64,000 nucleotides of DNA, from the NCBI RefSeq assembly GCF_002854065.1, contig NZ_CP024147.1; one strand, 5' to 3'. The position numbers were made by a program, and so were the translations under genes. The stretch comes from Escherichia coli (GTDB lineage Bacteria; Pseudomonadota; Gammaproteobacteria; Enterobacterales; Enterobacteriaceae). The notes under the pieces are model-generated. The model ran no database searches and was not told the origin of the DNA. It worked only from the letters and a program-made list of their open reading frames with translations. Below, piece by piece: positions 61,903-64,000 of the stretch (positions within the stretch are counted from its first letter, which is position 1; the number at the start of each line of letters is the position of its first letter).

Positions 61903-62301
61903 TTATTCGTCTGAATCTAAAACATACTTTGTGAAGTATTCCTTTAACTGGGTTTCAGGAAGAGTGATTAGTGTCTCGACGATATCGGGCTGTTGTAACT
62001 TGCCAAATAAACAGCGTAAAAGTTTCAATTGCTGCTGCGGATTTTCCACAATCAACGCAATAACCAACGATACCTCCACGTCGTTATCATCATCCGCTTG
62101 CTGAAAATGAACTTTATTTGTTGGCCTTAACAGATAAATGGCTGACGACTTAGCATGAATCGCCTCACAATGCGGTATTGCAATGGCGTGCTGCTCAAGC
62201 ATTATCCCGGTAGGGAATTCTGCTTCTCTGGCAATTAATGCCTGTGGCCAGGTATCATGAACCACACCTTTGGCGAGCATCTCATTACCGATATGGGTTA
62301 A
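61903..62301 (-). pseudogene. gatA: gatA (PTS galactitol EIIA) lacking its 5' end, truncated by IS5
   Basis: Coding frame reads ...LTHIGNEMLAKGVVHDTW... straight out of the IS5 left end; no start codon or ribosome-binding site remains; about 18 N-terminal codons are missing relative to the 150-aa GatA I recall. Confidence 0.85.
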
Positions 62302-63496
62302 GGAAGGTGCGAATAAGCGGGGAAATTCTTCTCGGCTGACTCAGTCATTTCATTTCTTCATGTTTGAGCCGATTTTTTCTCCCGTAAATGCCTTGAATCA
62401 GCCTATTTAGACCGTTTCTTCGCCATTTAAGGCGTTATCCCCAGTTTTTAGTGAGATCTCTCCCACTGACGTATCATTTGGTCCGCCCGAAACAGGTTGG
62501 CCAGCGTGAATAACATCGCCAGTTGGTTATCGTTTTTCAGCAACCCCTTGTATCTGGCTTTCACGAAGCCGAACTGTCGCTTGATGATGCGAAATGGGTG
62601 CTCCACCTTGGCCCGGATGCTGGCTTTCATGTATTCGATGTTGATGGCCGTTTTGTTCTTGCGTGGATGCTGTTTCAAGGTTCTTACCTTGCCGGGGCGC
62701 TCGGCGATCAGCCAGTCCACATCCACCTCGGCCAGCTCCTCGCGCTGTGGCGCCCCTTGGTAGCCGGCATCGGCTGAGACAAATTGCTCCTCTCCATGCA
62801 GCAGATTACCCAGCTGATTGAGGTCATGCTCGTTGGCCGCGGTGGTGACTAGGCTGTGGGTCAGGCCACTCTTGGCATCGACACCAATGTGGGCCTTCAT
62901 GCCAAAGTGCCACTGATTGCCTTTCTTGGTCTGATGCATCTCCGGATCGCGTTGCTGCTCTTTGTTCTTGGTCGAGCTGGGTGCCTCAATGATGGTGGCA
63001 TCAACCAAGGTGCCTTGAGTCATCATGACGCCTGCTTCGGCCAGCCAGCGATTGATGGTCTTGAACAATTGGCGGGCCAGTTGATGCTGCTCCAGCAGGT
63101 GGCGGAAATTCATGATGGTGGTGCGGTCCGGCAAGGCGCTATCCAGGGATAATCGGGCAAACAGGCGCATGGAGGCGATTTCGTACAGGGCATCTTCCAT
63201 GGCACCGTCGCTCAGGTTGTACCAATGCTGCATGCAGTGAATACGCAGCATGGTCTCCAGCGGATAGGGCCGTCGGCCATTGCCCGCCTTGGGATAAAAC
63301 GGCTTGATGACAGCGGTCATATTCTGCCATGGCAGAATCTGCTCCATGCGGGAGAGGAAAATCTCTTTTCGGGTCTGACGGCGCTTAGTGCTGAATTCAC
63401 TATCGGCGAAGGTGAGTTGATGGCTCATGATGTCCCTCTGGGATGCGCTCCGGATGAATATGATGATCTCATATCAGGAACTTGTTCGCACCTTCC
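62302..63496 (-). mobile_element. IS5 insertion sequence (1195 bp) with 16 bp terminal inverted repeats
   Basis: Ends GGAAGGTGCGAATAAG (62302-62317) and CTTGTTCGCACCTTCC (63481-63496); contains the InsH transposase gene. Confidence 0.95.
62448..63428 (-). CDS. insH: IS5 transposase InsH
   Basis: 326 aa; [13 protein letters not shown]...[16 protein letters not shown] transposase of the IS5 family. Confidence 0.95.
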
Positions 63497-64000
63497 CTAA
63501 TCATGCCCAGTGGGATGTCCACGCCTTCAAGATTCACCATCATCGTTTCGACGCTATTTTTAATCCGACTATGCGGCCAGTAATAACGAATACGATCCGA
63601 CAGGCTGTAACGAATATCCAGTAATGAATCGTTAAAACCCGTACGATAATATTTTTTCCAGTATTGCGGTTCGTCGAGCATCACTTCTTCAATTACCGCC
63701 AGGCAACCGCTGCGATTTTCAGGGGCGATAAGTTCCTGCTCAATTTGTGCCAGTGCAAATATCGCCTCGCGTAAAGCAAAGGTTAATGCGGGACCGACTT
63801 TCAATATTGCAAAGTGATCGCGGACTAATTCCCAATAAGCCGTCCGGGTCTGGTAATCGGTAGAATGTGCTTCATAAACCATTCGGGTGTTTTCTATCCA
63901 TTGCGCCAGCGGCTGCGCTTCCTGCGACTGATAATGGATAATATTGCTGTGATCAAATTCCACGCCCGGCTGCACCACGATGGCAATCACGCGTGTTAAC
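63497..64000 (-). pseudogene. gatZ: gatZ (tagatose-bisphosphate aldolase non-catalytic subunit) with its 3' end replaced by IS5; 5' end beyond the window
   Basis: GatZ-like frame (...[34 protein letters not shown]) runs into the IS5 right end and terminates after 9 IS-encoded codons (REGANKFLI). Confidence 0.8.

Follow-up and report, generated by a model that had tools for sequence, protein, structure and literature searches.

The DNA analysed here, a stretch of 64,000 nucleotides from contig NZ_CP024147.1 of Escherichia coli (assembly GCF_002854065.1) that is called the window below, ends within the galactitol operon, where a copy of IS5 stands between a gatA gene without its beginning and a gatZ gene without its end. 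Galactitol (dulcitol) use is a biotyping trait. The locus raises the question of whether IS5 simply inserted between these gene fragments or whether DNA was lost next to it and, if so, by which route and with what consequence for the operon. Our answer is that the window very probably carries a secondary deletion, anchored at IS5 and derived from an ancestor with a simple gatA::IS5 insertion.

The gat Operon of the Window

The genes are arranged in the order gatZ-gatA-gatB-gatC-gatD-gatR on the minus strand, and the operons annotated in E24377A, CUWW06, and K-12 are collinear with this arrangement. The Pfam families at the locus (GatZ_KbaZ-like, PTS_EIIA_2, PTS_IIB, EIIC-GAT, and ADH) are those expected for this operon. 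The gatY gene lies beyond the end of the window. The gatB gene (61588–61872, minus strand) codes for the galactitol PTS component EIIB of 94 aa and is identical to that of the reference E24377A. Compared with the same reference, the full-length gatC (60229–61584, minus strand; EIIC, 451 aa) has two substitutions and the full-length gatD (59141–60181, minus strand; galactitol-1-phosphate 5-dehydrogenase, 346 aa) has three; the latter is the same as the CDS of CUWW06. The repressor gene gatR (58262–59035, minus strand) codes for a DeoR-family protein of 257 aa. As judged from its ORF and translation, it is full length and free of any IS, and in this region the window is base-identical to CUWW06, where the product is annotated as WP_001295426.1. 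The same accession is given to gatR in strains with an intact operon. The first-pass annotation was therefore right in calling gatR intact and in stating that the K-12 gene is disrupted; in the annotation of MG1655, gatR is split by IS3E, and gatC of that strain is a pseudogene.

The IS5 Element

The inserted element is an IS5 isoform of 1195 bp (62302–63496, minus strand). It is bounded by imperfect terminal inverted repeats of 16 bp, GGAAGGTGCGAATAAG and GGAAGGTGCGAACAAG, which match at 15 of 16 positions. The "left" and "right" ends named at the outset are valid as window coordinates and do not correspond to the canonical orientation, in which IRR (62302–62317) faces gatA and IRL (63481–63496) faces gatZ. 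The transposase gene (62448–63428, minus strand) is intact and shares the orientation of the gat operon; it codes for a DDE_Tnp_1 protein of 326 aa with precomputed Pfam matches to PF05598 and PF01609. In comparison with IS5A of K-12, the element shows 95.73% identity, with 51 substitutions and no indels, and the differences are concentrated in the IRL-proximal third. The transposase differs from InsH1 of K-12 by five amino acids. With a threshold of about 95% or more nucleotide identity, the copy counts as an isoform of IS5, being a borderline case at 95.73%. This isoform is rare, copies with ≥99% identity being present in just 36 records; those of SY3626 and 100416 are 100% identical to the one in the window.

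Sequence Lost from gatA and gatZ

The element is flanked by TTAA at 62298–62301 (gatA nt 55–58) and by CTAA at 63497–63500, so that the two flanks differ, which agrees to the base with the first reading. To size the lesion, the window was aligned to E24377A, whose operon is intact, as the first-pass annotation had advised. The sequence missing from the window amounts to exactly 187 bp, to which gatA contributes 54 nt, the spacer between gatZ and gatA 9 nt, and gatZ 124 nt. The loss of the gatZ terminus, the intergenic region, and some 18 codons of gatA, which had been proposed from the window itself, is thereby confirmed. A simple insertion of IS5 is rejected because its flanks are not identical and are separated by 187 bp in E24377A; nor does the window hold a gatZ stop codon and a gatA start codon, both intact, on the two sides of the element.

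The absent part of gatA comprises codons 1–18 (MTNLFVRSGISFVDRSEV, 54 nt). The remnant (61903–62301, minus strand) consists of codons 19–150 and the stop codon, and it has lost the start codon and the ribosome-binding site together with the first 18 codons. As noticed at first sight, its frame leaves IS5 as LTHIGNEML; the IS sequence upstream in the same frame offers stop codons but no start. Within the remnant, translation could first begin at the ATG at 62280 (Met26), from which an ORF of 125 aa can be read. In intact GatA, the Pfam domain PTS_EIIA_2 spans residues 10–136, and the remnant thus lacks the first part of the domain in addition to its translation signals. In draft contigs of the clone, the 125-aa ORF is present in roughly 100 index blocks. 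In related genomes, PGAP calls the 125-aa remnant an ordinary CDS and not a pseudogene. Despite this call, the missing domain segment suggests that the remnant has lost its function.

In the case of gatZ, the 124 nt absent from the window correspond to residues 380–420 (41 codons) and the stop codon. The truncated gene (63469–64000, minus strand) continues past the end of the window. Its frame passes from ...DIPLGMI directly into REGANKFLI, derived from IS5, and ends at a stop codon at 63469–63471, giving a product of 388 aa with residues 1–379 of GatZ. The count of nine IS-derived codons made initially is essentially right, as the tail is specified by one hybrid codon (AG/G) and eight IS codons. 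The Pfam GatZ_KbaZ-like domain of the intact protein covers residues 1–418.

The Precursor State in the Closest Relatives

When a 25-kb flank was compared with 5,426 complete E. coli genomes, only three of them (CUWW06, SY3626, and 100416) matched at ≥99.9%, and all others matched at ≤98.8%. Over 63.5 kb, 10 substitutions separate CUWW06 from the window, and the only indel is the 191 bp that CUWW06 has beside the IRL end of IS5. In both CUWW06 and SY3626, the identical IS5 has the identical gatA junction; it is bordered by a perfect duplication (TTAA/TTAA), and gatZ is intact. Further simple insertions on the same haplotype were found at two loci (L023 and L026), and an empty site with a single TTAA at another (L028). 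The precursors thus show the 4-bp YTAR target-site duplication of IS5, one copy of which is deleted in the window. Put differently, the window equals the simple-insertion precursor minus 191 bp, namely the IRL-side copy of TTAA and the next 187 bp, and the TTAA at 62298–62301 is the kept copy of the original duplication. The first-pass annotation had proposed that the insertion was followed by an adjacent deletion or by recombination between two IS5 copies; the state of CUWW06 and SY3626 supports this proposal, in which the two mechanisms lead to the same sequence.

Two side observations concern the same genomes. The mdtD gene is annotated as a pseudogene in CUWW06 and is intact in the window, the stop codon of CUWW06 being one of the 10 SNPs. 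The presence of ISKpn26 near gatA in several genomes had raised the suspicion that the TTAA of gatA is a hot spot for IS5-family elements. This was rejected, as the junction was common only to CUWW06 and SY3626; in BL12, ISKpn26 occupies another site, near the 3' end of gatA.

The final sequence would be identical if the order of events had been reversed, with IS5 entering the CTAA of gatZ first and a deletion then extending toward gatA up to the same TTAA by coincidence. The CTAA is a good IS5 target, which speaks for such an independent origin. Its second endpoint would, however, have to fall on exactly the base at which IS5 entered in the near-identical relatives, and this with a 100% identical copy of a rare isoform. 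Moreover, in none of the 5,426 complete genomes does an intact gatA accompany an IS5 at that CTAA. We consider the reversed order extremely unlikely and retain the gatA::IS5 insertion as the ancestral state.

The Deletion Joint

The last base of IS5 (63496) adjoins the tetramer CTAA at 63497–63500, which corresponds to gatZ nt 1136–1139, and 191 bp are gone in comparison with the precursor. The element itself is retained intact. The joint 63496/63497 is unambiguous: since the adjoining bases differ on both sides, it has only one possible position, and microhomology is absent. A microhomology-mediated deletion was rejected because no bases are in common at either breakpoint. The CTAA at the joint is a YTAR tetramer, that is, the type of target used by IS5 as established from 220 reconstructed duplications (PMC5009759). 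In the surrounding sequence, YTAR occupies 1.0–1.2% of positions.

Insertion sequences are classic sites of misassembly, and the 191-bp gap might be an artefact beside a repeated element. As one contiguous piece, the joint is absent from the 5,426 complete E. coli genomes, in which all eight matches covering ≥80% of the joint query are split by at least 191 bp. It follows that no complete genome carries IS5 at that CTAA in this orientation. The same joint, with the exact 388-aa GatZ', is found on a 97.6-kb contig of the NCBI assembly GCA_035821435.1. It is also found, again with the 388-aa GatZ', in Logan contigs of ERR10376543, which were assembled separately by a different pipeline; these count as separate datasets and do not imply independent isolates. 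The window and GCA_035821435.1 differ at one base, 63305, inside IS5, and this difference within the repeat could be taken to favour an artefact. The recurrence of the joint in GCA_035821435.1 and in the Logan contigs makes an assembly error unlikely, and it would be surprising for an artefact to coincide exactly with an IS terminus and a YTAR site. Taken together, we regard it as most improbable that the joint was created by assembly.

Further Deletions on the Same Haplotype

Proteins of the lineage were used to find other alleles in public assemblies, and those described here lie on the same haplotype, with 0–1 SNP in 3.8 kb of flank. Three deletions were found on the IRR side of the same element. 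In strain 100416, 793 bp are deleted and the end is IS5/CTAA at gatC nt 77. In GCA_900449015.1, a deletion of 2582 bp ends as IS5/TTAG at gatD nt 463. The third one, of 2711 bp, is present in GCA_029997615.1 and GCA_965179415.1 and ends as IS5/CTGG at gatD nt 592. When the window is included, each of the four deletions has one end flush with a terminus of IS5, and in three the other end lies on YTAR. By our own arithmetic, the chance that at least three of four ends fall on YTAR is about 7 × 10⁻⁶ (binomial, p = 0.012). The CTGG at gatD nt 592 is the exception, which is attributed to the use of a non-consensus target or to another cause. Two loci first taken for further rearrangements, L029 and L030, were left out. 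Both are contigs from metagenomes that run on into another IS5 variant (94–97% identity), which probably reflects joining across the repeat by the assembler.

Mechanism of the Deletion

We propose that the locus was shaped in two steps. In the first one, as the closest relatives still show, IS5 inserted into the TTAA of gatA with the usual 4-bp duplication; this insertion severed GatA from its start codon and its first 18 codons. The product of the second step is seen in the window, and its mechanism is inferred. The transposase would have joined the IRL of the same IS5 copy to the CTAA situated 191 bp away in gatZ. Lost with this joint were the IRL-side TTAA copy, gatA codons 1–18, the spacer of 9 nt, and the final 124 nt of gatZ. 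The involvement of the transposase appears very likely, because each of the four deletions starts directly at an end of IS5 and YTAR is the endpoint in three. The three IRR-side deletions replicate the pattern of the window within the same haplotype.

A deletion may also arise independently of the transposase, by replication slippage or illegitimate recombination, in which case its start at the end of IS5 would be coincidental. Non-IS deletions of more than 100 bp are known in E. coli (PMC5009759), and the sibling deletion that ends on the non-YTAR CTGG would fit such an origin. In the window, however, there is no microhomology, the deletion starts flush with the last IS base, and it ends flush with a YTAR tetramer, for which the chance is about 1%; the pattern shared with the siblings argues in the same direction. 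A transposase-independent origin is already disfavoured by these data, and we find it highly unlikely.

A deletion made by the transposase could have followed either of two routes. The first route is a one-step intramolecular transposition of the replicative type, from which the deleted segment would leave as a circle. In the second route, another co-oriented IS5 would hop locally into the CTAA, and homologous recombination between the copies would follow. The two routes would give an identical product, and from the sequence they seem about equally likely. Considered by itself, the two-step route, that is, a hop of IS5 in the same orientation into the CTAA of gatZ and RecA-dependent recombination of direct copies 187 bp apart, is a sub-case nested in the main explanation, and we rate its probability at slightly below one half. 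It yields the observed sequence exactly, including the retained CTAA. In addition, Lee et al. ascribe most short IS-flanked deletions of E. coli to a local hop followed by recombination of the existing and the novel copy, and IS5 was the most active element in their study (PMC5009759). On the other hand, two IS5 copies 187 bp apart were found neither among the 5,426 complete genomes nor among the lineage loci examined, which is weak evidence, since such an intermediate would be unstable and short-lived; furthermore, its product is the same as that of one-step intramolecular transposition. The two-copy intermediate would carry a diagnostic k-mer in which ...GATACTGACTAA is directly followed by GGAAGGTGCGAATAAG.

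Comparison with Known Systems

Deletions flanked by an IS that build on pre-existing copies and lead to the loss of the target duplication are common in mutation-accumulation (MA) and long-term lines of E. coli (PMC5009759; PMC11708052). The window resembles the deletions at IS150 in the LTEE (PMC11708052) and at IS1, IS2, and IS5 in the MA lines (PMC5009759) in that the resident IS is kept, one flank is unchanged, the loss extends outward from the IS terminus, and the target duplication is gone. In those lines, as here, the deletions are clustered at the resident copy and can enlarge stepwise. Unlike in these experiments, we deal with natural isolates of one clone, in which all states are extant, from the empty site through the simple insertion to four deletion alleles running in two directions. 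In the case of IS903, a member of the IS5 family, adjacent deletions were attributed to a replicative/cointegrate pathway, i.e., to one-step intramolecular events (summarised in PMC11708052). The family and the start of the deletions at the end of the element are the same as in the window, whereas IS5 proper falls into another subgroup, the present case is known from sequence, and the two-step route is equally compatible with it.

Loss of gat function through insertion sequences is also well known as an adaptation of K-12 to the mouse gut, where the gat-negative mutants that were selected mostly carried an IS upstream of gatY or within gatA, gatC, or gatZ (Barroso-Batista et al. 2014, PMC3945185). 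The similarity consists in the loss of function of gatYZABCD via an IS. The strain used there was K-12, with gatR disrupted by IS3E and a constitutive operon, whereas gatR is intact in the window. Because of this difference, selection by galactitol toxicity or by the cost of constitutive expression cannot simply be assumed here. The gat locus of K-12 MG1655 is likewise damaged by an IS, yet another element and another gene are concerned, and the outcome is constitutive expression there as opposed to a structural knock-out here. A paper on isobutanol tolerance that names both gatZ and IS5 (PMC3071312) was rejected as a precedent, since it reports a gatZ frameshift and no IS5 event.

Consequences for the Operon

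The first-pass annotation had ascribed the inactivation of the operon to an insertion-associated deletion. The deletion is real; its role in the inactivation needs to be corrected, as the start codon of gatA and its first 18 codons had been lost beforehand through the simple insertion in the ancestor. Galactitol uptake would thus have been lost before the deletion, with the EIIA component truncated by the ancestral insertion. Since gatA was already broken, the deletion is regarded as a later erosion of a dead operon. Its added effect would be the C-terminal truncation of GatZ to 379 aa with a 9-residue tail encoded by the IS. Since GatR is intact and galactitol would not be taken up, continued repression of the operon is to be expected, and the deletion is then most simply explained as neutral erosion.

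It had also been suggested that gatBCD could be transcribed from upstream or from an IS-derived promoter. A consensus scan revealed no sigma-70-like promoter in the IS5 end that faces gatA, and the total number of matches was not above the expectation from shuffled sequence. An outward promoter of IS origin is therefore unsupported. No terminator-like site was found by a scan of the transcribed strand of IS5, and transcription could conceivably read through into gatBCD from the gat promoter or the co-oriented transposase gene.

In the window, both gatA and gatZ should be annotated as disrupted. The strain is predicted to be galactitol-negative, as its GatA lacks the start codon and residues 1–18 (or 1–25) and its GatZ lacks residues 380–420; in biotyping terms, a galactitol (dulcitol)-negative result is to be predicted.

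The event is an ordinary, textbook IS-anchored deletion and involves no new mechanism or system. The sole unusual feature of the case is the completeness of the natural series of states preserved in public genomes. A wider reading, which we put forward tentatively and consider rather unlikely, is that the clone represents a natural series of nested deletions around one IS5. The series would begin with the empty site and the simple insertion and extend to at least four independent deletions, which are flush-ended, run in both directions, and in three cases lie on YTAR. If its events were one-step, it would provide field evidence for target-specific intramolecular transposition by IS5 proper. 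If the erosion were selected, for example against residual gat expression as in the mouse-gut experiments, the loss of gat would be an adaptive target in a wild lineage with intact gatR. The case illustrates how IS copies without target duplications arise, and it offers an example, traceable base by base, of a single IS insertion that seeds the stepwise, bidirectional erosion of an operon.

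IS5 Isoform at the gat Locus

The IS5 copy located between the truncated gatZ and the gatA remnant (62302-63496) was compared with IS5A of K-12. The two elements are 95.7% identical and differ by 51 substitutions. A copy at least 99% identical to the IS5 of the window was found in only 36 of the 3,833 matching records. The element is a minority isoform. Because the substitutions relative to IS5A concentrate in the third of the element nearest to IRL (positions 852-1178, counted in the orientation of the window), a mosaic origin of this copy is suggested.

The gat-associated IS5 was also inspected in two genomes of the same haplotype that carry IRR-side deletions, L024 (GCA_900449015.1) and L027 (GCA_965179415.1). 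In both, an internal indel splits the transposase ORF; the L024 copy is 1194 bp long. This indel is either genuine degeneration of the IS or an assembly error at a homopolymer.

Gene Content Elsewhere in the Window

Two further regions were identified by collinearity with the annotation of CUWW06, the closest relative. Positions 1-31700 comprise an O52-type O-antigen cluster with a wzm/wzt ABC-transporter and the colanic acid cluster, and a ParD/ParE toxin-antitoxin pair lies between yegP and yegQ (54170-54764). The diguanylate-cyclase gene dgcE (yegE), located between udk and alkA (37421-39760), is interrupted, leaving two ORFs, one of 570 aa and one of 201 aa. The corresponding stretch of CUWW06 is base-identical, and its annotation gives MASE1 and PAS pseudogene fragments that contain an internal stop and lack the C-terminus. 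The mdtD gene of the window (49904-51319) is intact and encodes 471 aa, unlike that of CUWW06, for which the annotation gives a pseudogene interrupted by an internal stop. The window and CUWW06 differ by only 10 SNPs, one of which is a G/A difference at position 51210, within mdtD.

gatA Lesions in Other Genomes

Various different IS elements were observed in or near gatA among other complete genomes, with the position mapped only in strain BL12 (L004 1949-3144). Duck isolates have ISKpn26 close to the 3′ end of gatA, and strains 2013C-4830 and 2012C-4227 carry IS2. Two elements are present in PEC41 (IS5 and IS1) and in CUPS04 (ISVsa5 and ISKpn26).

Lesions of other kinds were found in other lineages. 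In GCA_004174735.2 (L010 2801-3000), yegU runs straight into gatA at a point shortly before Met26, the first start codon available in the gatA remnant of the window, and no IS is present. This is an independent, IS-less deletion of yegT, fbaB, gatY, gatZ and the gatA 5′ end. In L012 and L015, the 5′ end of gatA is hit by point lesions, each upstream of position 3001: a 1-bp deletion (GATCGTAG to GATGTAG) in the former, and a change of codon 9 from GGA to TGA in the latter. These point lesions are independent, so the gat operon appears to have been inactivated repeatedly in nature.
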